Shown in pieces: positions 7,495 to 55,785 of a stretch of 64,000 nucleotides of DNA. Location of the stretch: the NCBI GenBank assembly GCA_021816845.1, contig JAKAWT010000002.1, forward strand, positions 141,724-205,723. The letters run 5' to 3'. Below the pieces are notes generated by a model that worked only from the letters and a program-made list of their open reading frames with translations, did no database searches and was not told the origin of the DNA. A program made the position numbers and the translations under genes. The stretch's first letter is position 1. Every line of letters begins with the position of its first letter. This stretch comes from a bacterium. GTDB taxonomy: Bacteria; Patescibacteriota; Dojkabacteria; JAKAPS01; JAJZLI01.

Positions 7495-8355
7495 ATGCAC
7501 AATATGGAATTTCAACATAATGAAATGTTAGAGGAATATGGTAATTTCAAGGTATCTGTTATAGATGGTATTGATGGATCAGGAAAAGGTTCTGCAACAG
7601 AGGAAATGGCAGAGATAATTTCAGGTTTAGGATATAACGTATTAACTGTAGACTATCCCCAGTATGATGCCTTGTGGGGTCAAATAATACAGAAACTTCT
7701 TGATACTGATGATCCAACTATTGACATATACCAAAGAATGGCTATATATGCTCTAAATAGATTAGAAAGTGTACCTTCTCTAAAAGCACAAATGAAAGAT
7801 ATAGGCTCTTTTTATAATACTACATATGTACTTTTTGATAGATTCATAACATCCAATGCTATGACATGTGCATATTACTCAAAAAAAGACCCAAAAATAT
7901 TAGATGATATTGAATCATTATATAAGTTCATGTTTGATTTAGATTCTACTTTTCTATCCATCCTCCATATTCCTGATTTTCATGTTGTTGTTCCTACAAT
8001 TGATCATGGAAAGGCTATGCAGGCTGTGGAGAAAGATACTCAAAGGAGTGGGACTGATTTGTATGAACAAGTGGATATTTTAAAATTGGGTAATAGGATA
8101 TATCATGAATTTGCTGTACTTGATCCACGGAGATTTACTCTTTTAAATCAAGATTCTTCATATGGTAGAAGAATGTCGAGAGATAGGATAGCACGTGAGA
8201 TTATTAAGATCCAATTCGGTGAGATAGCAGAATATGGGGATAGGAAAGGGAGAGTTTATAGATTCCAATTTGACCAATCTAAAGTAGATACCTCTTTATT
8301 TAAACCTATATTAGATAGATTCCCTTCATTAAGATTACTGAATCCATATAAATAG
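7495..8355 (+). CDS. tmk: Thymidylate kinase-like P-loop nucleoside/nucleotide kinase
   Basis: P-loop IDGIDGSGKGS and a DRFITSN motif resembling the Tmk DRYxxS motif. Directly downstream of thyX. Longer (286 aa) than typical Tmk. Confidence 0.55.
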   Translation: MHNMEFQHNEMLEEYGNFKVSVIDGIDGSGKGSATEEMAEIISGLGYNVLTVDYPQYDALWGQIIQKLLDTDDPTIDIYQRMAIYALNRLESVPSLKAQMKDIGSFYNTTYVLFDRFITSNAMTCAYYSKKDPKILDDIESLYKFMFDLDSTFLSILHIPDFHVVVPTIDHGKAMQAVEKDTQRSGTDLYEQVDILKLGNRIYHEFAVLDPRRFTLLNQDSSYGRRMSRDRIAREIIKIQFGEIAEYGDRKGRVYRFQFDQSKVDTSLFKPILDRFPSLRLLNPYK

Positions 8356-16059: not shown

Positions 16060-17409
16060 TTATAAGTTGCTTACCAATTGCTGATACAAAGCAACGTATT
16101 TTTCTGCAGATCTACCCCAAGAAAAATCTTCATTCATTGCTGTTTGTATCATTTCATCCCATTTTGGGGTATTGAACATGGATAATGCCTCTTTTAGAGT
16201 GTTTACTAAACTCAATGGGGAATATTCTTCAAATGTAAATCCAGATACCAAACCTTCTACTGAGTCCTTAAGTCCTCCAGTCGATCTTACAATAGGCAGT
16301 GTTCCATACTTCATTGCAATCATTTGTGTTAATCCAGATGGTTCATATCTTGAAGGTATTATTAATGCATCAGCACCTGCATATATTTTTTCAGCTAATG
16401 TTATATCAAAAGTGATATCAGCAAATAAAGAAGGATCCTTTGTTCCTAGAATCTGTAGTTGATCTTCAAAATCTTTGGCTCCTGTACCCAATATGATGAA
16501 ATTTGCATTTTTATTCTCTAGAGTCTCCATAGCTTTGATCAATATATCAATACCTTTCTGATAATCTAGTCTTGATATAAAAGCAAAAAGAGGAGCATCA
16601 GTGCTAAATTTTAAATGTAATTCATCAATAAGTCTTTTTTTGTTTTCCAGTTTTCCCATCTTATAATTGGATATATTATATTTGGAATAAATTTTATCAT
16701 CCTTATCTGGATCATAAATTGAATAATCTATTCCATTCAATATTCCATATAAATTACTTTTTCTAAGTTCCATAAAATCTTCTATCTCTCCTCCGTATTC
16801 TTTTGTTAATATCTCTTTAGCATAAGTAGAAGATACTGTGGATACAATATTTGCATTTAATACACCTTGTAATAGAAGATTAATTTGGTTATCTGATTTA
16901 TCAATCTCTATAGTTGAATGATATTTTTGAAGCTTTAATGCATCTAATATTTCAAGTGAATATCTTCCTTGGTAGGCTGGACCTAAATTATGTATAGTTA
17001 ACATAGTTTTTACATTATTTAATCCTATGTCTTTTAGAAGTATAGGTATTAATGATGTGTGATAATCATTTATATGGACAATATCTACTCTTCCAAATTT
17101 TTCATCTTTTATGTCTTGAACTACCTTTTGTGAAAACATTGCAAATCTTATAGGGTCATCTGGATATCCATAAACGTTATCTCTTGATGAAAAATATTCT
17201 GGTATATCTATATAATTAATTTTTACATCTGAACCAGGGATTGTTGCAGGCTGTGGTGTAGGTATTATTTTATATTTAGGTATTACTACTTGTATATTAA
17301 TAAAGTCTAATAAACATTTTGGTAAAGCCCCTGCAACATCTGCAAGACCACCTACCTTTATTATTGGTGCAAGCTCAGATGAAACAAATAAAACATTAAT
17401 TTTGTCCAT
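16060..17409 (-). CDS. glgA: Glycogen/starch synthase (GT5, GlgA-like), paralog a
   Basis: N-terminal KVGGLADVAGALPK (KxGGL motif). GT-B fold length, C-terminal E-x7-E region (SRYEPSGLTQM). Confidence 0.8.
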   Translation of the reverse strand: MDKINVLFVSSELAPIIKVGGLADVAGALPKCLLDFINIQVVIPKYKIIPTPQPATIPGSDVKINYIDIPEYFSSRDNVYGYPDDPIRFAMFSQKVVQDIKDEKFGRVDIVHINDYHTSLIPILLKDIGLNNVKTMLTIHNLGPAYQGRYSLEILDALKLQKYHSTIEIDKSDNQINLLLQGVLNANIVSTVSSTYAKEILTKEYGGEIEDFMELRKSNLYGILNGIDYSIYDPDKDDKIYSKYNISNYKMGKLENKKRLIDELHLKFSTDAPLFAFISRLDYQKGIDILIKAMETLENKNANFIILGTGAKDFEDQLQILGTKDPSLFADITFDITLAEKIYAGADALIIPSRYEPSGLTQMIAMKYGTLPIVRSTGGLKDSVEGLVSGFTFEEYSPLSLVNTLKEALSMFNTPKWDEMIQTAMNEDFSWGRSAEKYVALYQQLVSNL

Positions 17410-18826
17410 GTTTTTTATTATAGCCTATTATTCCTTTTTGTTTCAAATAAAGATTGTTTATTCTTTTTCTGAACTCTTCTGCTCTTTTAAAATTTAATTT
17501 TTCTGCTGATTCAAGCATTTGCTTTTCAAGATGTTTTATTATGCTATCATATTCTTTAGGATCAGCATCATATGATTTAGTTTCAATAATTTCACCAGCT
17601 TCTTCATCAAAATTATTTGCCATTCTATCTATAACTCCTTCTCTTTGCCATGCAAATGCAGTAAATATTATGTCTTTATATAAATTTATTGCCCTTTTTT
17701 TATCTTCATCCTCCAAATCAGGTAAGTTAAGGATACTCTCTCTAAGTTCATATGCTCCCTTTTCTATCATTTCTATACTCCACCATGGTCTTGCTGAAGC
17801 CCACCAATATTGATCGGAATGTATTGCTTTATCAAGGATACTTCGTGCTCTATACCATTGTTTTTCTTTTATACTAAGCTTTCTATTCTTATCATTCAAG
17901 TCGTTAAACCTATATTTTGAGGTACTAACTTTTTCTATTGCAAAATGTGTAAGCTGCCATTGCATTTGATTTACTTTATTATCGCGATTTAACCACCTTT
18001 GGTATGGTTGGTCTTTTAATAGTTCCGTTGGGATTAAAGCCCAAGTAGAGGGAACTATTGATACACTATCTCCAATTTTAAAAGAATCTAGTAGATCCTC
18101 ATATCTTGCAGTTTTGATCTTATCAGACTTAAATATATCCTCAAGTAGTAATTCAAGCCCTGGTCTGTGATGGCCAAATGTTTCTCCATCCATTGCTGTT
18201 GGCAGATAAATATTCTGATTAATCAAGTCTTTTATTTCTGCTAAGAATATATTTCCATTTTCAAGTTGTGCAGATAATATTTTAAAACTGATATCTCTAT
18301 CTCTAAAAAAACCTACCATGTTGGTTCCTTTAATTTTATATAATACGTCATGTTTTATATCACCTTTATCTTTTTCAAAGGCTAACTCATCAAATAACAT
18401 CCATTTATAACCCATCTTTGAAACAACATTAACAACTTTTTCTGATATTCCAAGTTCAGGAGAAAAAAAACCTTTTGGGTTATATAAAGGTCCATATACT
18501 GATTTGTTTATTTTATGGTTTAATTCTATCTGCCTTATTATTTCATCCTCTGGGATTAGTGGAAGGAATGCATGATATGCTGCTGAATCAGTTAATTCTA
18601 TTTGTCCTCTTTCAAGTAATAACTTTATATCCTCAATCAGGTTATAATACTTATATTTTATAAATAACTCTGTAAGTGATGCGTTTATATTTAATGTGAT
18701 TTTACCTTTTGTATTTTCTTTTAAGGTATTTAGAATAACACTATAACTTTCATCTGCTATAAGATCTAGCATTTCTTTTGTTTGAGTGGGTGGTTGATAT
18801 ATGTGTAGAAAATTTGCCCAAATCAT
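17396..18826 (-). CDS. Glycoside hydrolase family 57 protein (alpha-glucan branching/processing), paralog a
   Basis: GH57 region 1 NFLHIYQPPTQ (HxHQP-like), GQIEL, and a candidate nucleophile Glu (FSPELGI) and acid/base Asp (AMDGETFGHH). Overlaps the upstream GT5 by 14 nt. Confidence 0.75.
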   Translation of the reverse strand: MIWANFLHIYQPPTQTKEMLDLIADESYSVILNTLKENTKGKITLNINASLTELFIKYKYYNLIEDIKLLLERGQIELTDSAAYHAFLPLIPEDEIIRQIELNHKINKSVYGPLYNPKGFFSPELGISEKVVNVVSKMGYKWMLFDELAFEKDKGDIKHDVLYKIKGTNMVGFFRDRDISFKILSAQLENGNIFLAEIKDLINQNIYLPTAMDGETFGHHRPGLELLLEDIFKSDKIKTARYEDLLDSFKIGDSVSIVPSTWALIPTELLKDQPYQRWLNRDNKVNQMQWQLTHFAIEKVSTSKYRFNDLNDKNRKLSIKEKQWYRARSILDKAIHSDQYWWASARPWWSIEMIEKGAYELRESILNLPDLEDEDKKRAINLYKDIIFTAFAWQREGVIDRMANNFDEEAGEIIETKSYDADPKEYDSIIKHLEKQMLESAEKLNFKRAEEFRKRINNLYLKQKGIIGYNKKHGQN

Positions 18827-18829
18827 ATA

Positions 18830-20239
18830 TTAATTTTTATTTCCTAAATTTAATTTTTCTTGTTTGATTTCCTCTATCCTAGTTTTTAACTTATCTGCTA
18901 TGTCATACTCTCTATTTTTTGATGCATTGTACATTTCTTTTTCTAATCTTTTTATTGCTTTATCATATCCATTTGGATCTGCTTTTTTATTTGAAATTTC
19001 TTTATTGCGTTCATCAAGAAAAAATTGTGATGATAGTTTTTTTATTTTTCCTTCCCTTTCCCATGCTATGGCAGTTAGAATAATATCTTCATAATATGAT
19101 CTTCCTTTATCTTTGTCTGATTTTTCTGTGTCCGGGACTAAATCGATTACTACTGAAAGGTTATATGCACCTCTTTCAATCATTTCTATATCCCATACAG
19201 GTTTTGCTGATGCAAAAAAGAATTGGTCATGGTATAGGGATTGATCGAGCAAGTATCTCGCTTTTAGCCATGTTTTTTCCCTTTCTTGAAGATAAGTATA
19301 ATCTATATCTACAATATAAGGATCTTCAATTTGATATATAGAATTATACACAGATTTGAATGCTAAATTAAGTAATCTCTGTTGCAATTGATGAATTTTA
19401 TTATCTTTACTCATCCAACGTTCAAAAGAATTTTGTTCATTATATAAAGGTACAGTCCATGTACTTTGGTTAGGTTTTATATCAAATCTTTTTTTAATCT
19501 TAATTATTAAATCTTTAAACAAGATATAGTGTAGAGATTTTTGATTATATAGATATTCAAACATTTTTATATACCCTATTCTTTGATGTCCAAAAGTTTC
19601 TCCATCTTCTCCTGTATATAAGAACTCACCATTTTTTATTTTATTTTCAAATGAAGATATTAAATCTTCTTTCTTCTCCATTTGGGCAGTTAGGATATAA
19701 AAGCTAGATGCTCTATCTCTTATAAAAATATCTAGTCCATCGTTTTTATATATACATGAATGATCTATCTTTCCATTTATTGCAGTTTCATCAAGTAGTA
19801 TGTATTTATAGCCTGAAGATTCTAATCTAATATTTTTGATAACATCAAAAGATTTTTGGTCATATGCCATTGCTGTAGGTAGAAAACCTAATGGTTCATA
19901 GTTTTTAAAATACATTTTATTAATTTTTCTATTTAACAATATTTGCCTTTCAATTTCTTTTTTAGGTAACATTGGAAGGAACGCTTGGTAAGCTGGAGTG
20001 TCTATAAATTCTATTTGCCCTTGTAATGATAATTGAGATATTGTATCAAGTAAGCCAGTATACCCTAATTTATATAAAGTTTCTGTTAAACCTGCATTTA
20101 TTACAAGATTAATTTTTGCATTCTTATTATTTTTAATAACATTAAATAGAGGTATATAGCTTTCTTCAATAACCTTCTTTAGGATTTCATCTTTTTGTGT
20201 AGGTGGTTGATAAATGAATATCAGATTAGTCCAGTTCAT
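18830..20239 (-). CDS. Glycoside hydrolase family 57 protein, paralog b (possibly catalytically altered)
   Basis: Same architecture as paralog a (NLIFIYQPPTQ, GQIEF, EDGETFGHQ). The position aligned to the nucleophile Glu reads PTAMA. Confidence 0.7.
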   Translation of the reverse strand: MNWTNLIFIYQPPTQKDEILKKVIEESYIPLFNVIKNNKNAKINLVINAGLTETLYKLGYTGLLDTISQLSLQGQIEFIDTPAYQAFLPMLPKKEIERQILLNRKINKMYFKNYEPLGFLPTAMAYDQKSFDVIKNIRLESSGYKYILLDETAINGKIDHSCIYKNDGLDIFIRDRASSFYILTAQMEKKEDLISSFENKIKNGEFLYTGEDGETFGHQRIGYIKMFEYLYNQKSLHYILFKDLIIKIKKRFDIKPNQSTWTVPLYNEQNSFERWMSKDNKIHQLQQRLLNLAFKSVYNSIYQIEDPYIVDIDYTYLQEREKTWLKARYLLDQSLYHDQFFFASAKPVWDIEMIERGAYNLSVVIDLVPDTEKSDKDKGRSYYEDIILTAIAWEREGKIKKLSSQFFLDERNKEISNKKADPNGYDKAIKRLEKEMYNASKNREYDIADKLKTRIEEIKQEKLNLGNKN

Positions 20240-20241
20240 GA

Positions 20242-21768
20242 TTAGAATATTTGATAGTTCATCCCTAATTTGTCTATTGGTCCATTAGTTATATTCATTG
20301 CTCTTATATATATATCTATATATTTCCTTGCAGAATTCTCCCAAGAGAAATCTGTTTTCATTGCGGATTCTACTATTTTTCTCCATAACCCTATATTATT
20401 ATACTGATCTATCGCCCTTACTATCGTACCATATAAGGAATATGGATTATAATTATCAAATAAGAATCCATTACCAGAAATATTCTCCATATTAAAATCT
20501 GTAATAGAATCTGATAATCCACCTATGTTTCTTGCAATTGGAATACAACCATATCTCATTGATTCCATTTGTGTTATTCCTGATGGTTCAAATCTTGAAG
20601 GTATTAGTATCATATCGGCGCCAGAAAATACTTTTTTAGGCAAAATAAAATCAGCCATCAAATGAGTTCCAACCCTTTTTGGGTATTTCTTTTCTAATTT
20701 CTGAAAGTATGATATGTATCTCCCATCTCCACTTCCTATTATTACAAACTGTATATCTTTGTATTCTAGAAAAAGTGGATCCAGTATTTCTATTACAAGA
20801 TCTAATCCTTTCTGATCATCTAATCTTGTAACCATAGAAAGTATAGGGCCATTAGATTTTTCTAAGTCAAATTCTTTTTGTAGAGCAACTTTATTAATAT
20901 GTCTTTTTATTGAACTTCTCCAATCATAATTTTCTACAACATTTATGTCTGTTTCAGGATTCATATATGTATAATCTATACCATTCAATATCCCTACTAA
21001 TTTAGTTCTAACTTCCTTTAAAAGATGTTCTAGTCCTTCTGAGTATTCAGGAGTTAAAATTTCCTTGGAGTATTTTTCAGAAACTGTTGATACTATATCA
21101 GCATACATTATTGCCCTTCTCATAAAATTTTGTTTTTGTAATGCTGGATCAAACAAATCTGCTATCTCTCCTCTCCCATTATCAAAATCTAGATCATTGG
21201 TATTTTTATGATCAAATAATCCTTGATGTACTATATTGTGTATACTAAATACTGTAGATATCTTTGATAGTTTTGGGTCATCTTTATAATTTACTTTTAA
21301 CAAATTTGGGATGTGTCCTGTATGCCAATCTGCACAATTTATTACATCTGGAACCCATGTAGATATCTTTAGAAACTCCATTATTGATAATGATAAAAGA
21401 AGAAATCTGATATGATCATCAGAATATCCATATACATTTGATCTAGTTTCATAGAACTCCTTGTTCTCTATAAAATATACAATAGGTTCTTCTTCACTTT
21501 CTTGGTAAACTTTTATATTGCAAATTATATCTCTTTGTGATTGTGTTGGTATCTTCAATCCTTCATATAACATTTTAAGGGGATACCTTTCTTCGTCAAT
21601 ATTCCCATATTTAGGCATTATTATTCTTGCATCTACACCTTCTTTTTTTAATGCTTTTGTAAGAAAATATGATACCTGTCCAAGACCACCTACGCCAGCG
21701 TAAGGGTAAACTTCAGCAGAGGTATATAATAATTTTATATTGTTCCTAATTTTCATTAAAGAATTCAT
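20242..21768 (-). CDS. GT5 glycogen-synthase-like glycosyltransferase, paralog b
   Basis: N-terminal AGVGGLGQV (the KxGGL motif with Lys replaced). GT-B C-terminal half with SRFEPSGITQM. Confidence 0.7.
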   Translation of the reverse strand: MNSLMKIRNNIKLLYTSAEVYPYAGVGGLGQVSYFLTKALKKEGVDARIIMPKYGNIDEERYPLKMLYEGLKIPTQSQRDIICNIKVYQESEEEPIVYFIENKEFYETRSNVYGYSDDHIRFLLLSLSIMEFLKISTWVPDVINCADWHTGHIPNLLKVNYKDDPKLSKISTVFSIHNIVHQGLFDHKNTNDLDFDNGRGEIADLFDPALQKQNFMRRAIMYADIVSTVSEKYSKEILTPEYSEGLEHLLKEVRTKLVGILNGIDYTYMNPETDINVVENYDWRSSIKRHINKVALQKEFDLEKSNGPILSMVTRLDDQKGLDLVIEILDPLFLEYKDIQFVIIGSGDGRYISYFQKLEKKYPKRVGTHLMADFILPKKVFSGADMILIPSRFEPSGITQMESMRYGCIPIARNIGGLSDSITDFNMENISGNGFLFDNYNPYSLYGTIVRAIDQYNNIGLWRKIVESAMKTDFSWENSARKYIDIYIRAMNITNGPIDKLGMNYQIF

Positions 21769-25802: not shown

Positions 25803-28541
25803 TCAAATATGATTAATATTAAAAATATTATAATTCGTATTAATATCATACTTCATAAAAATGTTAAGTGTTTCAACTGATTGTTTTAGTCTCCCTGTCT
25901 TGAAATATAATAGAGATAAAATAGCGTTATTATTATCTAGATTATTTGTGAAATATACCATGTTATTACCGTAGAAATTAGTTTGAAATATTATTTTTTG
26001 ATTATATATTTGTTTTTGTATTTTATTATTATGAATCTCAAAATATGGTATCAATGCTGCATATAAAACCAATGATTCTTGATAATCACGTATTTGACCA
26101 TTTATTGAATACTGTGAAAATATTATGTGAGAATCATTCCATTGATTAATGAAAAATTTAGTTTTCTTAATATAATTATATGCTTCCTTACTATTATTTA
26201 AATAATAGTCTAGACCAGCGTTCCATAATACCTGATAAGCATCAAGAGCAAATCTAGTTGAAATATTTGACTCACCAAATCTTCCATTATTGTTAATAAT
26301 ACAGTAATTCACTGGTAAGTATATATTTTTATTATTTAGTGTAGAACAATTATTTATAACTCTATATGATGTATTTACTATGTTACTCCAGTCGTGTGAA
26401 GGATCAACAAAAGCAAAAATCCTGTATTGGTAAGGAGCTAAATATGAAGGATTGAGTATGTAGGAATTATTATTCTTAGCCCAATCACCAGCGATGACAT
26501 ATCTTTGATTATTTATTTTGACGGTTTCATTTTTCCATATGCTATTTAGGATAGCTTTTGCCTTAATAATATAATAGCTTTTTCTCCACTTATATGCTGC
26601 TAATATTAATGAATATGCAATATTTTGATCTGCATTTACAGAAGATTTTGTATTTATAACTCCATAACTTCCATTTGCATGTTTTCCCCATGAACTCACA
26701 AAAAGATTGTAATGTGGTGCTGAAGCATCTCCAGTCTTAGTCATATTTCCATATGTCCAATTTAAGATATTATTAAACATATTTTGTTTATTCATATATA
26801 AAGTATTTAGGAGTGCATATGATTGGAATTTGGAGGAAGTGATATTTGATTTTGTAGAAACATTGCCTATATAGTTTAAATATTTAATTTTGTAATATGA
26901 CCAAAATTCATTTAAAATTAAATTTTCTGTATCTAAGTTTGACTTGTAATATATGTTACTAGTTAATTTACCTGTTAACACGGGTATATTAGTCATATTT
27001 ATATTATTTTCTAAAGTAAATGTTTTAACTTTAGTTTTATTAAATTTTAGAATCTCATAATCTTTGTTATTTATAATTTTGTAATAATAATTGTAAAAAT
27101 TTTTATCAGATATCCCATATAATTGAGATTTTGGATAATGTTTATTAATTATAATATAATTAGTATAAATCCATGGTTCCTTTGTGAGATATTTGTTGTT
27201 ATTGATTTCATTTGTTGTTATTAAAAATTTATAATTTATTTTTATATTTTGTAATAATTCTGAATCATCATTAATATTTGCAAGGACGAATCCACTTTTA
27301 TAATCTTTTTGAAATTTATCTACTGTAGTTTTGAAATAACTTCCATAATTATGTTTATATATTTTATTATGGTTGTTTAAATAATAAGATTGATATTCTA
27401 TATTTAATAATGAGAATATAATCACTAATATAAACAATGTGTATTTAAAATATCTTTTTAGATATATATTATTTTTATAATCTATTGATGCAAAAAATAT
27501 TGCTGGAGGAATCGCAATAAATGGAAGTAGTAGCAAAGTTAATTCTCTGTTTGGATTTTGTAAAAATATAGATAATACTAAAAATAATAATGGTATTAAA
27601 ACTAGTATCAATATGATTATTGAGTTATGTTTGTTAGTTTTTTTTATCCTAAAGAAAAAGCATGCATAAGAAAATATTGAAAGTATAATAAAGAATAGTC
27701 CATATATTGAGACTATATTTTCTGCCAAATGAATTAGATTTATTAATATATTTTGTGAATTTATTACTAGATTATAGTTGATGTTTCCAATGAAATTTTT
27801 ATAAATATAATAGTTATAAATTAATATATACAATATTGGTATTATTGCAATAAACAAGAATAGTATAATTGTTGCTTCAATTTTTTTAATGTCTTCGTAT
27901 TTACATTTTTTTTCAAAGTAAATAAATAATGGGATTATAATTATATATATTATTGATATAATATTTAATAGAATTAATCCTGCAGTTAAAACACTTATTA
28001 GGAATAATTTCATCTTTCTATTAGTATTATTCCATGTTATTAGATAATAGAAGAGCATTATGGATAGCAATGAGTAAATTATAAAATGTGACCCTGAAGA
28101 AACAAAATATAATATATTGGGATTGAATGTAATTATTAAAGATGATAGTAACCCAGCAATTTTATTTTTAGTTATATATTTTATTAGAATATATAAATAT
28201 ACATTCAAAATTGAAAAAAATATTATATTTGGTATTGCTAAAGAAATTCCCGAATTTAATAAATATTGATTTATAGAAAATATTGAGAATATTATATTAT
28301 ATAGTAAGTGATAAGATCCTAATTGTAGTGACCCAGTATAAATTTTATCTAAGAAAATTTTAGTATTTTCTAATTGTATGTTTGAATAATTGCTTAAAAT
28401 TAGTAAATTACTCTTTACTAAAAAATATGTATAAAATGAGGATATTAGAAAAGAATATATAAATATAATCCTCTTTATAGGTGATTTGTTAATATTTAAT
28501 TTTTTTGAACTTAATTCTTTAATTTTATATGCTATATTCAT
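25803..28541 (-). CDS. Large polytopic membrane protein with C-terminal extracytoplasmic GH8-like (BcsZ-type endoglucanase) domain
   Basis: About 14 TM helices in the first 400 aa. C-terminal about 350 aa contain GH8-like motifs (SSWGKHANGSYGV; NADQNIAYSLILAAYKW; ILNPSYLAPYQYRIFA). Start overlaps the stop of the upstream GT2 by 4 nt. Confidence 0.5.
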   Translation of the reverse strand: MNIAYKIKELSSKKLNINKSPIKRIIFIYSFLISSFYTYFLVKSNLLILSNYSNIQLENTKIFLDKIYTGSLQLGSYHLLYNIIFSIFSINQYLLNSGISLAIPNIIFFSILNVYLYILIKYITKNKIAGLLSSLIITFNPNILYFVSSGSHFIIYSLLSIMLFYYLITWNNTNRKMKLFLISVLTAGLILLNIISIIYIIIIPLFIYFEKKCKYEDIKKIEATIILFLFIAIIPILYILIYNYYIYKNFIGNINYNLVINSQNILINLIHLAENIVSIYGLFFIILSIFSYACFFFRIKKTNKHNSIIILILVLIPLLFLVLSIFLQNPNRELTLLLLPFIAIPPAIFFASIDYKNNIYLKRYFKYTLFILVIIFSLLNIEYQSYYLNNHNKIYKHNYGSYFKTTVDKFQKDYKSGFVLANINDDSELLQNIKINYKFLITTNEINNNKYLTKEPWIYTNYIIINKHYPKSQLYGISDKNFYNYYYKIINNKDYEILKFNKTKVKTFTLENNINMTNIPVLTGKLTSNIYYKSNLDTENLILNEFWSYYKIKYLNYIGNVSTKSNITSSKFQSYALLNTLYMNKQNMFNNILNWTYGNMTKTGDASAPHYNLFVSSWGKHANGSYGVINTKSSVNADQNIAYSLILAAYKWRKSYYIIKAKAILNSIWKNETVKINNQRYVIAGDWAKNNNSYILNPSYLAPYQYRIFAFVDPSHDWSNIVNTSYRVINNCSTLNNKNIYLPVNYCIINNNGRFGESNISTRFALDAYQVLWNAGLDYYLNNSKEAYNYIKKTKFFINQWNDSHIIFSQYSINGQIRDYQESLVLYAALIPYFEIHNNKIQKQIYNQKIIFQTNFYGNNMVYFTNNLDNNNAILSLLYFKTGRLKQSVETLNIFMKYDINTNYNIFNINHI

Positions 28542-30064
28542 TTGTTCACAAGATTTACAATAGGAATTAATGTCTTATTTTCATTTATAATATGCTTTCC
28601 ATGAGTAGTTTTTTCCCAAGAGTAAGGATTGATCACAATTTGATACATGGCTCTAATAGTAGCTATAGAAAGTACTATCCAGTAAATTGGAGATAAAAGT
28701 ATATATTTAACAATTGAAAATCTATCTCTAGAATATGATCCTATCAAATTTAGATATGTAAAGATCAAGTTACCCAGTACAAATGATATAATAGAGATAA
28801 TAAGTATCGGTTCTGGGAAGGATTCCTTAATAAGTGGTGATGATGTGATAAACCATATTAGAAGTAGTACCCAATAAATAAAATTAAATGCATTTACAAT
28901 AACTGTTCCAGGGACTGTTATTAGAAATCCAATAAAATTTTTCCATCCTCCAAGTTCATTTTTAGTTCTTATAGGTTCTCTTAGGTTAACTATACTAGTT
29001 TGTATGAACCCTTTCATCCATCTTGTCCTTTGTTTGATCCAACTATTTATATCTGACGTTGCTTCCTCTTTACTCATAGAATCTAATATACTTGTTCTAT
29101 AACCATTTCTCCTTAATCTAATACCTATATCACAGTCTTCTGCTACATTATAAGGATCCCAACCTCCTATATCTTTTATTGCAGATATTCTAAAGTGTGT
29201 ACTATGGCCTGATAAAGGGATTGGAAAATCAAATTTTTGTAATCCAGGTAAGAATAAATCATAGTAAAATGAAAATTCGCTATTGAATAAACCAGTTATT
29301 ATATTTTGATCTGCATTATAATGATCTAATCTTGTTTGAAAACATGCAATGTCTGGTTTCTTTAAGAATGCTAAATATGCTTTTTTAAGTTGATTTTTAT
29401 CTGGGATTATTTCCGCATCATAAATTACTAAAAACTCTCCTTTTAATTCTTGTAATGCTACATTTAAAGCTTTGGGTTTAGTTTTGGGTTCTACATTTGG
29501 TAGTATAAGTTTTCTAAAATTAGATGGGAAGTTTGCCCTATCTATTGCAGCTATAGTCTCATCATCATATTCTTCTAATGTTATTATAAATTCTACTTTG
29601 TCTTTAGGATAATCAATATCCATCATAGCTTTTTTGATTTGGTTAACAACCTCACTTTCTTTATATAATGGTATAATTACTGAATAATATGGTAAATCAT
29701 TCTCATTGATTAAGCCTATATCTTTATTAGATATATGTATAAAATCTGTTGTCTTAGATTTTAATACTACAATCACTTTGAAAATCATGAAAATGAAATA
29801 AGTTATTGCTATAAATGACGAGATATATATGTATATAGAAATATTACTGAAGTATGATAACAATGTTAAAGAAATTAATATTATGGCAATAATTATAGCT
29901 AAATTTTCTATTGGTTCTTTGTAAATATGTCTTTTTGAAGAATAGATTAATGGTAAATATAAATAATCTTGAGTATTTTTATAATTTACTGTATAGAATT
30001 TTTCTAGTCTAGGAATAGACATTATTTTTTTTACTATATTCTTTAGATTATTATATATAACCAT
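28538..30064 (-). CDS. Processive family-2 glycosyltransferase (cellulose/chitin/hyaluronan-synthase-like beta-glycan synthase)
   Basis: N-terminal TMs, GT-A core with DAE (D,D,D) motifs and the processive-synthase signature QRTRW (QxxRW), then C-terminal TM bundle. No PilZ domain evident. Confidence 0.7.
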   Translation of the reverse strand: MVIYNNLKNIVKKIMSIPRLEKFYTVNYKNTQDYLYLPLIYSSKRHIYKEPIENLAIIIAIILISLTLLSYFSNISIYIYISSFIAITYFIFMIFKVIVVLKSKTTDFIHISNKDIGLINENDLPYYSVIIPLYKESEVVNQIKKAMMDIDYPKDKVEFIITLEEYDDETIAAIDRANFPSNFRKLILPNVEPKTKPKALNVALQELKGEFLVIYDAEIIPDKNQLKKAYLAFLKKPDIACFQTRLDHYNADQNIITGLFNSEFSFYYDLFLPGLQKFDFPIPLSGHSTHFRISAIKDIGGWDPYNVAEDCDIGIRLRRNGYRTSILDSMSKEEATSDINSWIKQRTRWMKGFIQTSIVNLREPIRTKNELGGWKNFIGFLITVPGTVIVNAFNFIYWVLLLIWFITSSPLIKESFPEPILIISIISFVLGNLIFTYLNLIGSYSRDRFSIVKYILLSPIYWIVLSIATIRAMYQIVINPYSWEKTTHGKHIINENKTLIPIVNLVNK

Positions 30065-38886: not shown

Positions 38887-39804
38887 ATGATAGTAAAAAT
38901 TTCAAAAAATAAAAAAGTAATAAGTTCATTCTTTCTATTTATATTAATAATTATTATAGTTATATTGTCATTCTCCAAATTATTAGCATATTTAAAATTT
39001 CCTGCAACATTGCATGATATTGCCCTTGCTATAGTTGTATTCTTGATTGGATATTTTATTATCAATTTTATAGATGAAAGGATTATTAAATCTATAGAAA
39101 AGTATTCAAGAAGGAAGCAAGTTAATATGTTAAGTTTTATTTTTCTTATAGTCTCTTATATTGTTTTAATAATTGTTGTTCTTGATATATTAAATATAAA
39201 TATAACAAATATACTTTTAGGGGGTGCTTTTTTGGGTGTAATATTGGCTGTTGCCTCTCAATCCATGCTATCGAATCTATTTGGAGGTATTATTATATTA
39301 TTATTTAGACAATTTGATCCAGGAGATAAAATTAAAATTACTACATGGCAGTTTAGCTTTTTACTCCCAGCTTACCCTAATAAATTCTTTTCTAAAGATT
39401 TAGTACTACCTGGCTATGTAGGCACAATAGATACTACTGGATTTTTCTATACTACTTTTATAGGTGATGATGGAATTCCTTTTAAAATTCCTAATAGTAT
39501 ATTAATACAAGCATCTATTTTAAAATTAGATGATATAAAATATTTAAACGTACAGATTAAATATGAAATAAAAAAAGAACTGTCTTTTACAAAAGCTAGA
39601 AATATAATAAAAGATGTAATAGAAAAAACTAAGAAAGATCACGGTTTTGAAGTAAATAACTTTGACATCTATATAGATGAAACCTCACTTATAACATATG
39701 TTGTTGTAATAAAGATCAATGTACAAAATATTGAATCAGATTTCAGTATAAAGACTACTGTACTAGAAATGCTTATTGATAAAATAGATTCCAACTATTC
39801 CTAG
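38887..39804 (+). CDS. mscS: Small-conductance mechanosensitive channel (MscS family)
   Basis: Three N-terminal TMs, pore helix LGGAFLGVILAVASQSMLSNLFGGIIILLFRQFDPGDKI typical of MscS TM3, then beta-domain. Confidence 0.75.
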   Translation: MIVKISKNKKVISSFFLFILIIIIVILSFSKLLAYLKFPATLHDIALAIVVFLIGYFIINFIDERIIKSIEKYSRRKQVNMLSFIFLIVSYIVLIIVVLDILNINITNILLGGAFLGVILAVASQSMLSNLFGGIIILLFRQFDPGDKIKITTWQFSFLLPAYPNKFFSKDLVLPGYVGTIDTTGFFYTTFIGDDGIPFKIPNSILIQASILKLDDIKYLNVQIKYEIKKELSFTKARNIIKDVIEKTKKDHGFEVNNFDIYIDETSLITYVVVIKINVQNIESDFSIKTTVLEMLIDKIDSNYS

Positions 39805-39860
39805 ATATTACATAATTAAAGTCATTTGGTAAATTATATAGGTTATGATATAATTGCTTT

Positions 39861-40274
39861 ATGGAGATGGAAGAATTTGTTACAACTGAGGGAATAGTGG
39901 TTTTATCTACAGAACTAGGCAGATATGAGTGTCTATATGATGAATTTGGTAAGATTAGAAAAAAAACATATATTGTACCAGATGGAGAAAAGAGGGAGTA
40001 TCATTTTGATATTTTTGGTAAACTTATAAAAGAAGTATCTGTTTCTTCTAGTGGACAACAAAGTATATCTGAGTATATACATGATGATAAAGGCAAATTG
40101 ATAGCTAAAGTTAACCATCTAAATGGTAGAGAGTATAAATATATATATGATGAAAATGGGCGTCCTATAGGAGCTATGTATACTGATAAAAATAAACATA
40201 GGACACTAACAGAATACATATATAATGATGAAGGAATATGTATAAATAGGGTTAGGACACCTATAATAAAATAA
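39861..40274 (+). CDS. Small cytoplasmic YD-repeat protein, paralog 1
   Basis: Repeated YxYDxxG(R/K) units (SEYIHDDKGKLIAKV; YKYIYDENGRPIGAMY; TEYIYNDEGICINRV). No signal peptide; 137 aa. Confidence 0.5.
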   Translation: MEMEEFVTTEGIVVLSTELGRYECLYDEFGKIRKKTYIVPDGEKREYHFDIFGKLIKEVSVSSSGQQSISEYIHDDKGKLIAKVNHLNGREYKYIYDENGRPIGAMYTDKNKHRTLTEYIYNDEGICINRVRTPIIK

Positions 40275-40289
40275 ATGTTATAAAGTTAA

Positions 40290-40742
40290 ATGAATGTAGA
40301 GTCAATACAATATAATCAAGATAGTGATGTAGATACTTTTGTAGTTGAAGATGTTCTTGTTAGAAAAGAATTCGGAGTAGATGGAGTCGTATCAAAGGAG
40401 GTGGTAACATTCCCTGATGGAAAAATACACTCTAGGGAATATTATAGAACAGAAAAAGGAATTATTTCTAAGATAGTGGATTATTATTCTAGTATAGGAA
40501 CGACAGAATCTCTACATGATGACGAGGGACGAATTAGATCAAAAATTTTCAATCCAATTTACGGAGACAGTATTGAACATAGGTATGACAGATATGGTAG
40601 GGTTACTATGGAAATTAGAGTTTCACCTAATGGAGCTTTAAGCACTATTAAATATACTCGTGATAAAGAAGGTAACATAGTGAGGTTAACAAGTATAACT
40701 AAAAGAGAAATTGTAAAAGATATATTTACAAATGCAGACTAA
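40290..40742 (+). CDS. Small cytoplasmic YD-repeat protein, paralog 2
   Basis: Same repeat type (SLHDDEGRIRSKIF; HRYDRYGRVTMEI; YTRDKEGNIVRLT). 150 aa, 15 nt downstream of paralog 1. Confidence 0.5.
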   Translation: MNVESIQYNQDSDVDTFVVEDVLVRKEFGVDGVVSKEVVTFPDGKIHSREYYRTEKGIISKIVDYYSSIGTTESLHDDEGRIRSKIFNPIYGDSIEHRYDRYGRVTMEIRVSPNGALSTIKYTRDKEGNIVRLTSITKREIVKDIFTNAD

Positions 40743-42736: not shown

Positions 42737-43078
42737 TTAAGGTGTTGCAGAAATAGTAGTTCCATTTTTTAGCTTAAGGAGATATTCTACTGTATTATTG
42801 CTATTAGTGCTTTTTCTAATTGTTGCATCTAGTTTTTTTGCTAATTTACATATTTTTTCAGGGCTTTTGCAAGTATTTATTTTTTTTGTTGTATTTATAG
42901 AATTTGTAGGTTTTTTAAATGCTATAACAAAAAATATCAAAGATAGAGTAATGAATAACATAATTCCCAATATGATTATTGTATTAACTTGCCACTTTTG
43001 TATACCTCCTATATTTTCTATATTTGTGGTTTTTATATTTTCACCTTTACTTGTATTGTTCATATTAACGATTCTCAA
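42737..43078 (-). CDS. Small membrane-anchored hypothetical protein
   Basis: 113 aa, single TM (IIILGIMLFITLSLIFFVIAF). Start overlaps the xth stop (ATGA). Confidence 0.35.
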   Translation of the reverse strand: MRIVNMNNTSKGENIKTTNIENIGGIQKWQVNTIIILGIMLFITLSLIFFVIAFKKPTNSINTTKKINTCKSPEKICKLAKKLDATIRKSTNSNNTVEYLLKLKNGTTISATP

Positions 43079-43918: not shown

Positions 43919-44359
43919 ATGTTCATGAATCCAAATATACCAAATATGTATCCCCCAATTAATCAGAATAATCAAGGTCAACAAAACCAAGCTTATCAAC
44001 CTCAACAACCTCAGGAGGTTGATGACCCTATATTGTCTGTAAATATGGCTGTTAGGACTATGACTATATTAAGACCTATATCTCCAATACAGTATAATAT
44101 TCAGGCTAGATCTATTGAGAAAGTCACTTTACATTTGCACGGCATTACGAAAAGTATTGAAGTTATAGGAGTGAAAACTATTGATCAAGTTAATATAGAA
44201 CAGGGAATATTTTTTGGTAGGGTTAGAATAATACATATGGACAAGAGTGAAATTAGAATAGATCAAATATCAAAATCAAACGCTATGAAAGTGAAAACTT
44301 TCTTCGAACAGGTTGTAGCATTCCAAAGAAGTCATGTTGTGAACGTAACTGGGGACTAG
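43919..44359 (+). CDS. Hypothetical protein with Q/N-rich prion-like N-terminus
   Basis: Residues 1-33 MFMNPNIPNMYPPINQNNQGQQNQAYQPQQPQ; C-terminal about 110 aa predicted beta-rich domain. Confidence 0.35.
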   Translation: MFMNPNIPNMYPPINQNNQGQQNQAYQPQQPQEVDDPILSVNMAVRTMTILRPISPIQYNIQARSIEKVTLHLHGITKSIEVIGVKTIDQVNIEQGIFFGRVRIIHMDKSEIRIDQISKSNAMKVKTFFEQVVAFQRSHVVNVTGD

Positions 44360-52707: not shown

Positions 52708-55700
52708 ATGATAGTATCACCTGCAATGTATAAGTATAAAATATTTATAACGTTACTTGTAATATTATTCCTTGCCCCATTATTACACACTAATGCTTTT
52801 GCACAAAGCTATACACCTTCTGAGGTTAGATCCATGAGTGTAGATTCCAAAATAGTTCCAACAGGAAATGGTACTGGTTACTATATAGTATCGAACCAAG
52901 GGATAGTTCAATCTCTAGGATCTGCTAAATATTATGGAGGATTAAATAATATAGCTGTAGTACCAAATCATAATGTTGTAGATATGGTTGTAACACCAAA
53001 TGATGGAGGTTATTATATTTTAACTCAAGACGGAGGTGTTTATAACTTTGGAAATGCTCAGTTCTATGGATCTCTATATAACGTACAGACTGTACCAGTA
53101 AGAGTTGCTGTAAGCATGAAACTTACAACAACAGGAAATGGATATTATATAATGACACAAGAAGGTGGTGTATACACCTTTGGTGATGCAGTGTTCCAAG
53201 GGTCTGCATATACTTACCAGAATTCTCCTACAGTTAATGCTGTATCTTTCCAAGTAACAAATGGAGGTTACTATATCCTAGAGCAAAATGGTGGTGTATA
53301 TACTTTTGGTAGTGCACCTTTCTATGGATCAATGTTTAATGTAGTGGGGAATATTAACAGAACATCAATTGGTATGCAGTTAACTTCTCAAGGTTATATG
53401 ATACAAACTTCTGATGGTGGGGAGTATACATTTGGTAATGCACAGTTTTATGGAACTATCTTTAATATTGTAAATCCTCAATCAACAGTAGTTTCAGATA
53501 CAGCAGTACTTCCAGGAGATGGAGGTTATTACGTTCTTGTATCCAGTGGAGCAGTATATACATTTGGTGATGCAATATATCTTGGTAATTACACAACTTT
53601 GGGAATTTCTAATATAGGGGTTATTACAAATACAGGACCTTTAACGGTTACTGGAGATACTGCTTTGAATGGCAATCTATCTGTTATGGGTGTTATTACA
53701 GCACCATTACTTGATATAAACAATATCAATATATTAAGCAATATATATTTTACAGGTTCAAATCCACAGATAGATACAGGATCAAATTCTCTTACTTTTA
53801 ATGGTAATGGTTCTACAGGTAGTGTATGTTTCTTTAAATGTGCAAATAACGTATCTTCAGGAGGTTCCCTATCACTTCTTGGTGGAGAGTTACTTGGTGG
53901 AAATCTTAATGTAGGTGGGAGTAGTACTAATATACTAAATGGTAATACTGAGTTTAAAGATAACCTAACAGTATCTGGTAATACAAATACTTCTGGTATA
54001 ACGAATACTGGTCTTCTTACAAACAATGGTAATACTATGCTGAATGGAACTTTGAATATAACAGGAAATACAACTTTAAGTAGTAATTTACAGGTTAGCG
54101 GTAATACAAATACTCACGGTATAACGAATACAGGTTCATTGTTTAATGGTGGAAATTTATTTGTTGCTGGTAATGTATTTGTTAGAAATAATCTAGAGGT
54201 ACTCCATAATGTACATATAAATCATAATCTAAAAGTTAAAGGTCATACCAAGACTCATGGTATATATAATAAAGGAACGTTGAGGAATAATGGCATTATA
54301 GAAGCTTTTGGTACTAGAAGAACTAGATATACTTCTTTGGTTTCATTTGGTAAAACAAAGTTATTTGGTGAATTGAATGTTATCGGTCAAACTACAACTC
54401 GAGGTATAAAGAATAATGGGAATATTTCTAATAGTGGTGATTTATCAGTTCATGGAAACGTTGCATTCTTTTCTGATATGGAAGTAGCTGGTAGTACAAC
54501 TATTGGAGGCATATTAAATGTTACAGGCCAATCAACATTTGTTGGTAATGTTACTTTAGCTCAAGACCTCAATGTTGGAGGAATAACAACTACTAATGGG
54601 TTGATAAATAATGACAATTCGGGAATCACAGGTAATTTAAATGTTGGAGGTACTGGAACATTTGGAGGTAATTTAACTCTGACAGGCACCAATCCTCAAG
54701 TCAACTCTACAGGGTCAAATAATCTGACATTAAATGGTAATAGTAATACAGGAGATACATGTTTCTACTCATGCGGTAATAATATAATACCTAACGGATC
54801 TATATCATTCTTGGGTGGAGCCTTACTTGGAGGAAATCTTAATGTAGGTGGCAGCAGTACAAACATATTTAATGGAAATACAGAATTTAAAAATAATATT
54901 ACTGTATCTGGAAGTACAATAACTAATGGTGTAACTAATAATGGTTTGCTTACAAATAACGGGAATATTACATCTACAGGTACAGGAGTATTTTCTTCAT
55001 TTGTATCAGCATCTTTATATCAAATAGCTGGTGTTACAGTATTATCTAATGCAGGTACACAGAATATATTCTTAGGTCAGGCTGCAGGATTAAGTAATAC
55101 TACTGGATCTAATAACTCATTTATAGGTATGCAGGCAGGACAATATAACACGACAGGATCTAATAACACATTCGTGGGTCAAGATGCAGGATCAGGTTCA
55201 GGAATTCAACTTAATAATTCTACAGCAATAGGATACCAGGCATTAGTATCAGAGAGTAATGCAGTGGTACTTGGAGGTATAGGTTCAAATGCAGTAAATG
55301 TAGGTATAGGTACATCTACACCAAATGCAACATTAGAAATTACTGGGGTATCTGGTCAATCCCAAAATTATTTTGATATAACATCAAATGGAGCACCATC
55401 TGGTAATGTATTTTCTATAGATATGAATGGAAATGTAACTATATCTGGTCATATAATAGTACAAGGTGTAACACCAACATTAGTTGAATATCATGGTAAT
55501 ACAGCATCCTTGTCTGATGCCACAGATACATCAGGAGTCCTTCAGTTACAACTGAATGGTATAGCTGTTAGTGGATCAGAAGTTGAGGTTGTATTTGCAA
55601 AACCTTATCAAATTCCTCCTAATGTTGTAATATCACCTGATAATCCTCAAGCTGCGTTAGCATTTTCTAACCAAGATGCTTATGTCATATCATCTAAGAC

Positions 55701-55785
55701 AGGTTTTACTATAGTATTTGGTAGTTTCATTGGACCTCTACCTGCTCTATATGATTATCTTTGGACTTATCAAGTAATACAATAA
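52708..55785 (+). CDS. Large secreted surface protein: signal peptide, six-blade beta-propeller repeat region, duplicated Cys-containing beta-helical modules, and C-terminal phage-tail-fibre-like domain
   Basis: Signal peptide (LLVILFLAPLLHTNAFA). Six repeats of about 45 aa of the form GGYYILTQDGGVYTFGxAxFYGS. Two about 95-aa modules share TGSNxLTxNGN...C(F/Y)xxC...LLGGNLNVGGSSTNIxNGNTEFKxN. C-terminal GxxNT(T)GSNN(S/T)F(I/V)G repeats plus SNAVVLGG...VGIGTSTPNATLEITG resemble tail-fibre / endosialidase-chaperone-type domains. Confidence 0.6.
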   Translation: MIVSPAMYKYKIFITLLVILFLAPLLHTNAFAQSYTPSEVRSMSVDSKIVPTGNGTGYYIVSNQGIVQSLGSAKYYGGLNNIAVVPNHNVVDMVVTPNDGGYYILTQDGGVYNFGNAQFYGSLYNVQTVPVRVAVSMKLTTTGNGYYIMTQEGGVYTFGDAVFQGSAYTYQNSPTVNAVSFQVTNGGYYILEQNGGVYTFGSAPFYGSMFNVVGNINRTSIGMQLTSQGYMIQTSDGGEYTFGNAQFYGTIFNIVNPQSTVVSDTAVLPGDGGYYVLVSSGAVYTFGDAIYLGNYTTLGISNIGVITNTGPLTVTGDTALNGNLSVMGVITAPLLDINNINILSNIYFTGSNPQIDTGSNSLTFNGNGSTGSVCFFKCANNVSSGGSLSLLGGELLGGNLNVGGSSTNILNGNTEFKDNLTVSGNTNTSGITNTGLLTNNGNTMLNGTLNITGNTTLSSNLQVSGNTNTHGITNTGSLFNGGNLFVAGNVFVRNNLEVLHNVHINHNLKVKGHTKTHGIYNKGTLRNNGIIEAFGTRRTRYTSLVSFGKTKLFGELNVIGQTTTRGIKNNGNISNSGDLSVHGNVAFFSDMEVAGSTTIGGILNVTGQSTFVGNVTLAQDLNVGGITTTNGLINNDNSGITGNLNVGGTGTFGGNLTLTGTNPQVNSTGSNNLTLNGNSNTGDTCFYSCGNNIIPNGSISFLGGALLGGNLNVGGSSTNIFNGNTEFKNNITVSGSTITNGVTNNGLLTNNGNITSTGTGVFSSFVSASLYQIAGVTVLSNAGTQNIFLGQAAGLSNTTGSNNSFIGMQAGQYNTTGSNNTFVGQDAGSGSGIQLNNSTAIGYQALVSESNAVVLGGIGSNAVNVGIGTSTPNATLEITGVSGQSQNYFDITSNGAPSGNVFSIDMNGNVTISGHIIVQGVTPTLVEYHGNTASLSDATDTSGVLQLQLNGIAVSGSEVEVVFAKPYQIPPNVVISPDNPQAALAFSNQDAYVISSKTGFTIVFGSFIGPLPALYDYLWTYQVIQ

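Follow-up and report, generated by a model that had tools for sequence, protein, structure and literature searches.

Tandem genes for two small, signal-less YD-repeat proteins in a patescibacterial genome, a candidate binding scaffold

Two adjacent genes, here called A and B, were identified in a stretch of 64,000 nucleotides of DNA (the window) and are real genes of a bacterium of the Patescibacteria (CPR). Each encodes a small protein of five YD-repeat units that is predicted to fold into an 11-strand beta-meander, an identity and architecture of which we are highly confident. The best overall explanation, to which we give a probability of roughly 40%, is that A and B are a real, co-transcribed pair of strips of YD wall acting as a hetero-oligomeric binding scaffold. 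To our knowledge, wherever YD repeats have been characterized so far, they build the wall of large containers and adhesins that are extracellular or secreted (Rhs, Tc toxins, WapA, and teneurins). The conserved, signal-less five-repeat pair, which is probably transcribed on its own, suggests that the YD module can also be maintained inside the cell as a tiny protein in its own right.

The gene pair, its repeats, and its relatives

Genes A and B lie 15 nucleotides apart on the same strand (Table 1) and are tandem paralogues, as an earlier note on this DNA had proposed. Their products are 30% identical in a BLASTP comparison (E value, 2e-10), and a profile-profile comparison with hhalign gave a probability of 95.8% (E value, 8e-9). 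In the best hhalign register, the two proteins are offset by two repeat units, residues 12 to 81 of A being aligned to residues 62 to 131 of B. A tandem duplication that preceded the divergence of the four sampled lineages would have given rise to the two genes. Fusion of the two proteins by read-through was also considered and was rejected: three stop codons lie between the genes, and the two genes are in the same frame in the window and in related locus L001 but in different frames in L005 and L008 (431-nucleotide offset). As the frame is shared in only some of the lineages, a fusion of this kind is not a conserved feature. An Rfam scan of the window detected no RNA element, and the window contains no tRNAs.

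Table 1. Positions of the A-B unit in the window and of the YD units within each protein
Feature	Nucleotides	Strand	Residues	Remarks
Promoter-like site of the A-B unit	39826-39854	+		-35 TTGGTA, 17-nt spacer, extended -10 TGaTATAAT; 10/12 consensus match, with TG
Gene A	39861-40274	+	137 aa	ORF called at coordinates given beforehand
A, YD unit 1	39918-39989	+	20-43	
A, YD unit 2	39990-40058	+	44-66	
A, YD unit 3	40059-40127	+	67-89	
A, YD unit 4	40128-40199	+	90-113	
A, YD unit 5	40200-40271	+	114-137	
A-B spacer	40275-40289	+		15 nt, ATGTTATAAAGTTAA; two extra in-frame stops; no Shine-Dalgarno sequence
Gene B	40290-40742	+	150 aa	ORF called at coordinates given beforehand
B, YD unit 1	40353-40424	+	22-45	Degenerate
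B, YD unit 2	40425-40496	+	46-69	Degenerate
B, YD unit 3	40497-40568	+	70-93	
B, YD unit 4	40569-40637	+	94-116	
B, YD unit 5	40638-40706	+	117-139	

The repeats had been described as Rhs-type YD repeats, and the model searches bear this out. Protein A scored above the cutoff with both Pfam RHS_repeat (PF05593; 32.3 bits; cutoff, 22) and TIGR01643 YD_repeat_2x (20.5 bits; cutoff, 15.8), while the RHS_repeat score of B (17 bits) was below the cutoff. All seven family members scanned were matched by RHS_repeat (best E value, 1.1e-9). When the family profile was compared with proteins of solved structure, Rhs proteins came first (E value, 4.8e-11) and were followed by Tre23, Tse5, and teneurins (overall range, 5e-11 to 2e-3). 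One of the orthologues has already been annotated by JGI as a "YD repeat-containing protein."

Protein A contains five motifs of the form [YFH][DN]xxG[KRNI][LIVPC] (residues 26, 49, 74, 96, and 121), and B contains two canonical and three degenerate units, the spacing again being 23 to 25 residues. Shuffled A sequences contained a mean of 0.013 motifs; five were reached in none of 20,000 shuffles of A with either pattern or of B with the looser pattern, the patterns having been drawn up post hoc, after the sequence had been read. The three or four units per protein counted earlier are, by the motif count and the shuffles, an undercount, as A and B have five each. The description of the proteins as consisting of repeats only is accurate, since neither a toxin domain nor an Rhs-associated core was seen in the Pfam and NCBIfam scans. 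Their repeat sequences and predicted folds place both proteins in the YD/RHS-repeat superfamily.

The earlier note had also pointed to the possibility that members of the YwqK/MORN-variant antitoxin family, with a toxin gene next to them, had been misread as YD-repeat proteins. MORN_2 matched one of the seven family members, at an E value of 0.61, compared with RHS_repeat matches to all seven (down to 1e-9). No NCBIfam YwqK model matched at an E value of ≤10, no MORN chain was found in a PDB sequence search at an E value of ≤1, and no toxin gene is adjacent. Membership in this family is therefore disfavored and, in our estimate, extremely improbable.

Neither a signal peptide nor a lipobox nor a transmembrane segment was found in A or B when the sequences were read and their hydropathy was calculated (maximum 19-residue Kyte-Doolittle values, 0.58 for A and 0.78 for B). 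In-frame stop codons are located four codons 5' of the A ATG and directly 5' of the B ATG, so that an N-terminal extension is impossible for either protein. The absence of a signal peptide that had been noted for the pair is thus upheld, and both proteins are probably soluble and cytoplasmic, to judge from their sequences.

A family profile search of 1.84 billion representative proteins yielded 5,385 matches, which are dominated by Rhs-type giants of 1 to 7 thousand residues. Among the best 150 of the 5,385, only P0005 (B family, 252 bits) and P0001 (A family, 145 bits) were matched over their full length, and the rest were giant Rhs proteins or proteins of middle size. Fifty of the best 150 are shorter than 600 residues, all but one of them measuring 260 to 560 residues; a signal-like N terminus is present in 43 of these 50 and a lipobox in 39. 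Signal-less short YD-only proteins exist among the best 150 of 5,385 but are few (P0140, for example). These counts come from the best 150 of 5,385, a profile list in which short, diverged sequences would be expected near the bottom. Standalone cytoplasmic three-repeat proteins in tandem had been called unusual in the earlier note. A and B are unusual in being so small, in their cytoplasmic location, and in their arrangement as a tandem pair, but toxin-less YD-only proteins as such are not, as they are common in the best 150 and mostly exported. The tiny, signal-less, paired form was seen only in one narrow clade among the best 150 of 5,385 matches.

Other searches gave a similarly short list of relatives. 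Word-indexed homologue searches returned the orthologues and one lipoprotein, P0007, and a genome-contig scan returned only a sister metagenome-assembled genome and a giant Rhs toxin of Eubacterium uniforme. No relative was confirmed in pattern scans of metagenome contigs or in viral contigs, tblastn against phage genomes gave no match, and the only PHROGs match was a generic one to a YD-rich family of 2,333 positions (E value, 1.3e-4). A literature search on YD repeats in Patescibacteria/CPR found nothing relevant.

The predominance of export signals among the short YD-only relatives raises the alternative that A and B are surface proteins exported by a nonclassical route, miniatures of the exported YD lipoproteins that bind glycans or proteins of a host cell. 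Episymbiotic lifestyles are known in the group to which the organism belongs, which fits such a role. In addition, RHS repeats have been proposed to be carbohydrate binders (PMC3482391). However, A and B have neither a signal peptide, a lipobox, or a transmembrane segment nor room for one, and no secretion genes are linked to them. We regard export of this kind as unlikely.

Conservation, transcription, and genomic context

The intact pair occupies the slot between the genes for an MscS-type channel and a DHH phosphoesterase in the window and in three more lineages (L001 to L004, L005 and L006, and L007 to L010). Across the four lineages, the ORF lengths are nearly constant (135 to 138 residues for A and 147 to 150 for B). 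Orthologues of the window proteins in the other lineages are 67% to 69% (A) and 62% (B) identical, compared with 74% to 91% for the products of six flanking genes. In all pairwise comparisons, dN/dS was 0.25 to 0.48 for A, 0.20 to 0.38 for B, and 0.06 to 0.26 for the six flanking genes; relative to five of these six genes, the values for A and B are higher by a factor of 2 to 5, and they overlap the range of the adjacent methyltransferase gene. Both genes are under clear purifying selection that is more relaxed than that on most of the flanking genes. The faster evolution of A and B fits a partner-binding or accessory role.

A promoter-like site precedes A, and both of its hexamers are kept in the four lineages, with variation at one position of the -35 element (TTGGTA or TTGGTG). 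The aligned region from the 3' end of the MscS gene to the first codons of A (positions 39780 to 39875) has a mean column identity of 92%. Promoter-like matches are no more frequent here than in shuffled sequences, so the evidence for a promoter is its conservation. In L001, the element is retained although an insertion of 1.43 kb separates it from the MscS gene, which suggests that A and B probably form their own transcription unit; the two genes are probably co-transcribed. The extended -10 element (TGnTATAAT across the lineages) ends 6 nucleotides before the A ATG, so that a leaderless mRNA or one with a very short leader is predicted. Leaderless expression as a peculiarity of A was considered and discarded, as almost the whole genome lacks Shine-Dalgarno sequences (present in 4 of 58 ORFs) and starts of this type close behind a TATAAT are typical of it.

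This conservation bears on the suggestion, made in the earlier note, that the genes are what is left of a decayed Rhs element, in which case they would be functionless. The presence of nothing but YD repeats and dN/dS values above those of most neighboring genes are consistent with such an origin, and there is a precedent in orphan Rhs modules, which are known to have short YD stretches (bioRxiv 10.1101/2024.02.26.582050). The suggestion nevertheless does not stand. The ORFs are intact and of near-constant length in four lineages, dN/dS is well below 1, the promoter-like site is conserved, and complete, confident 11-strand folds are predicted for both proteins. The layout of an orphan Rhs locus is not seen either, as there is no DPxGL core, no toxin, and no immunity gene at the pair and no other YD ORF in the 64 kb. 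Decayed or orphan fragments are thus disfavored and, to us, very improbable.

The surroundings of the pair consist of housekeeping genes and give no hint of a function. The genes within about 10 kb include those for XseA/XseB, DUF488, an Elp3-like radical-SAM enzyme, a methyltransferase, MscS, DHH, GT2, ExoIII, and an HD protein, among others; the gene downstream of B encodes the DHH phosphoesterase and lies on the opposite strand. Elsewhere in the window are genes for aminoacyl-tRNA synthetases, for glycogen and glycan enzymes, and for amino acid metabolism. In none of the four lineages does a toxin gene lie next to the pair, and no secretion, PAAR/VgrG, or immunity genes were found near it. 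A further YD ORF was found neither in the 64-kb window nor in the flanks of the related loci. In L001, a ParE/YafQ toxin-antitoxin pair and a Fic gene have entered the neighborhood; they are separate insertions with partners of their own. A PADLOC defense scan of the pair gave no match.

Another explanation, close to the immunity-like or adaptor role suggested in the earlier note, is that A, B, or both are immunity- or antitoxin-like neutralizers that block a toxin, either endogenous or coming from a host or competitor; this would be a special case of the binding scaffold. The proteins are small, cytoplasmic, and repeat-only, they evolve faster than the products of all but one of the six flanking genes, and the gains in the L001 neighborhood point to an accessory or conflict-prone spot. 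Immunity proteins built of YwqK/MORN-variant hairpin repeats act in this way, albeit from a family to which A and B do not belong. In addition, all four of the B-family members tested matched Imm64 weakly (best E value, 3.7e-4). On the other hand, no toxin gene adjoins the pair in the four lineages, the L001 toxin-antitoxin and Fic genes have their own partners, and PADLOC gave no match. Two conserved paralogues with neither polymorphism nor polyimmunity arrays would also be an atypical immunity locus. By analogy and on these grounds, a neutralizer is conceivable but doubtful.

The identification of B itself as Imm64 (PF15600) was rejected. The match scored 16.8 bits against a cutoff of 25 and covered profile positions 14 to 78 of 207, B is predicted to be all-beta, and no ColD-type toxin is encoded nearby. 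Imm64 has an alpha+beta fold with DxEA and R motifs and is linked to the Tox-ColD toxin (PMC3482391). The match of B is probably spurious.

Predicted fold and a proposed mode of action

The AlphaFold2 models of A (pLDDT, 86.9; pTM, 0.72) and B (pLDDT, 83.9; pTM, 0.71) are both 11-strand beta-meanders with collinear strand maps, and they are confident although the underlying alignments were shallow. A sheet of antiparallel beta-hairpins, as in the Rhs/teneurin shell wall, is thus predicted for both proteins. Residues 1 to 10 of A form an acidic N terminus that is predicted to be disordered (pLDDT of <50), and predicted disorder in B extends over the N-terminal residues 1 to 13 and the C-terminal residues 139 to 150 (pLDDT of <50 at 1 to 10 and 142 to 150). 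In a Foldseek search with the A model, the OspA single-layer sheet (E value, 5e-7) and RhsA (7q97; E value, 2e-5) were retrieved; taken together, the A and B models come closest to this OspA sheet and to the shell wall of teneurins and Rhs proteins.

The two faces of each sheet were assigned by alternating the strand residues from the YD motif, that is, from the sequence register and not from model coordinates. The Tyr face of A carries 13 aromatic and 11 charged residues among 35, forming a ladder of tyrosines and other aromatic residues with Lys/Arg, and the opposite face has 16 aliphatic residues (Ile, Leu, Val, Met, or Cys) of 35. In B, 7 aromatic residues are on the Tyr face, compared with 14 aliphatic residues of 35 on the other. 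We infer that the sheets have two chemically distinct faces, one Tyr/aromatic and basic and the other mostly aliphatic. Among the orthologues of B, 8 of 35 positions vary on the Tyr face versus 17 of 35 on the aliphatic face (Fisher P = 0.045), and for A the corresponding numbers are 10 and 13 of 35 (P = 0.61); the asymmetry is marginal, with four sequences, three of them close. Single-layer sheets such as that of OspA can be stable with both faces exposed, and, given such sheets, the aliphatic face of A and B need not be buried.

In the explanation that we favor, each protein would be a short strip of Rhs/teneurin-type YD wall composed of five beta-hairpin units and 11 strands. At about one-tenth of the length of the matched Rhs core proteins of solved structure (1,065 to 1,530 residues), such a strip could not enclose a cargo, and for this reason it would be neither a toxin container nor the remnant of one. 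The aliphatic faces of A and B would be buried against each other or against another partner, the co-conserved paralogue being the obvious candidate, and the Tyr/basic face, the more conserved of the two, would be left as the ligand surface. Other hairpin-repeat sheets, such as the MORN/YwqK-type binders and the CPAP G-box, bind in such a fashion. On the basis of these sequence features and analogies, A and B are tentatively proposed to be a cytoplasmic hetero-oligomeric scaffold that binds proteins or peptides, the specific function being less probable than the broader explanation.

The strips might instead be self-assembling elements, in which the edges of A and B join, alternating or stacked, into a beta-sheet ribbon, a ring, or a small YD cage, in effect a split Rhs cocoon with no toxin. 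The OspA single-layer sheet is capped by globular domains. The predicted secondary-structure layout of A and B contains no globular capping domain, and the edge strands would be uncapped; structurally, the models are most similar to the Rhs shell wall and to OspA variants whose single-layer sheet has been extended. Two conserved paralogues of equal strand count would suit an alternating heteropolymer, and the promoter is strong-looking and conserved. However, the disordered charged termini (pLDDT of <50 at residues 1 to 10 of A and 1 to 10 and 142 to 150 of B) may cap the edges, and neither cargo nor accessory genes are linked to the pair. Self-assembly is therefore judged improbable.

In a bolder form of the proposal, the two proteins would together build a free-standing YD cage, ribbon, or binding platform in the cytoplasm, associating through their faces or their edges. 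We consider this rather unlikely. If true, the Rhs/teneurin wall module would for the first time be seen in a split, intracellular form with no toxin, here in an ultra-small symbiotic bacterium, and the minimal autonomous YD unit would be revealed. Should either scaffolding or self-assembly be borne out, the pair would offer a compact natural model for the stability of single-layer beta-sheets and for the nucleation of the YD wall, and one more function would be assigned among the many uncharacterized small proteins of Patescibacteria. In practical terms little is at stake, the family being restricted to one narrow clade.

Comparison with known YD-repeat and hairpin-repeat systems

The shells of Rhs, TcB-TcC, WapA, and teneurins (PF05593; TEN_YD-shell, PF25023) share with A and B the repeat family and the predicted hairpin-meander wall. 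Their core exceeds 1,000 residues, whereas A and B have five repeats in 137 and 150 residues and neither a closed cocoon nor an N-terminal plug. Unlike Rhs systems, A and B also lack an Rhs-associated core, a DPxGL autoprotease motif, a C-terminal toxin, PAAR, VgrG, and an immunity gene. The RHS core protein model NF041261 gave 15.3 bits against a cutoff of 2,000, direct reading showed that the DPxGL motif is absent from both proteins, and no toxin or core family matched in Pfam or NCBIfam at an E value of ≤10. With none of the shell length, the DPxGL core, the toxin, and the immunity gene present, A and B are not Rhs elements.

The best-scoring relatives that are not giants are short YD-only lipoproteins of 260 to 560 residues (for example, P0009, P0018, P0040, P0046, and P0007), which, like A and B, are toxin-less and consist mainly of YD repeats. 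They have a signal peptide and lipobox (39 of the 50 short proteins among the best 150 of 5,385), and a helical segment at the N terminus, and their repeats, such as YDYTYDANGNLIKEVYT, are nearly identical to one another. In contrast, A and B have no export signal, are at most half as long, have diverged repeats, and form a paralogous pair.

The OspA sheet and the G-box (TCP) domain of CPAP/SAS-4 are structural analogues of A and B only (8% to 16% identity), with no homology implied. The YwqK/MORN-variant (PF07661) immunity proteins differ from A and B in sequence family, and no gene for an LXG or other toxin lies beside A and B; nevertheless, they resemble A and B in their small size, their cytoplasmic location, their construction from hairpin repeats only, and their predicted sheet fold.

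Reading frame and origin of the gene pair

Genes A and B, the tandem paralogues built of YD repeats, are read in a common frame in the window (39861 to 40742) and in the related locus L001 (8001 to 8882), where the offsets from A to B are 429 and 432 nt, respectively, whereas the offset of 431 nt at the related loci L005 and L008 places the two genes out of frame. In the top alignment of the two proteins, residues 12 to 81 of A correspond to residues 62 to 131 of B, so that the register is off by two repeat units. This shift hints that the pair arose by unequal recombination inside a repeat array rather than by simple duplication of a whole gene.

Insertion and variable slot near the pair

The 1.43-kb insertion at the MscS gene of L001 encodes a toxin of the ParE/YafQ type together with a 91-aa partner, as well as an AHSA1-domain protein, and is flanked by a 39-nt direct repeat (6459 to 6497 and 7889 to 7927; 87% identical). 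The former 3' end of the MscS gene is still present upstream of gene A. What lies between the GT2 gene and the ExoIII gene differs among lineages, as listed in the table.

Features of the window and of related loci
Feature	Position	Strand	Description
ThyX-type ORF, 599 aa	4924-6723	+	two stretches matching Thy1; unusually long
Glycan-enzyme cluster	16060-21768	-	two starch/glycogen-synthase-like GT5 genes on either side of two GH57 genes
Glycan-enzyme cluster	25803-30064	-	912-aa GH8-containing protein, its gene overlapped by a GT2 gene
GT2-ExoIII slot, window	42737-43078		113-aa ORF with hydrophobic stretch
GT2-ExoIII slot, L001			Fic gene and two small ORFs
GT2-ExoIII slot, L005/L007			one protein, 257-262 aa, without Pfam match
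146-aa ORF	43919-44359	+	N-terminus rich in Gln/Asn/Pro (MFMNPNIPNMYPPINQNNQGQQNQAYQPQQPQ...)
1025-aa ORF	52708-55785	+	largest protein of the window without annotation
Insertion, 1.43 kb	L001:6459-7927 (GCA_027371855.1, DAHXLB010000011.1)		within the final codons of the MscS gene

Translation starts and other genes of the window

Shine-Dalgarno sequences are nearly absent: among all 58 window ORFs of at least 100 aa, only four have GGAG, GAGG, or AGGA at positions -18 to -3. Several start codons of the window lie within ~20 nt downstream of a TATAAT sequence, suggesting that leaderless or short-leader mRNAs are widespread in this genome.

The 1025-aa ORF matched no Pfam family at E values of ≤1e-5 and lacks YD repeats. 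The Pfam search also gave no match for the 146-aa ORF; L001 and the related locus L003 each have, in the equivalent place, a 146-aa ORF also without a Pfam match, paired with it by position and length. The ThyX-type ORF may encode a flavin-dependent thymidylate synthase that is internally duplicated or fused. The overlap of the GT2 and GH8 genes in the second glycan-enzyme cluster resembles the arrangement known for cellulose synthase.
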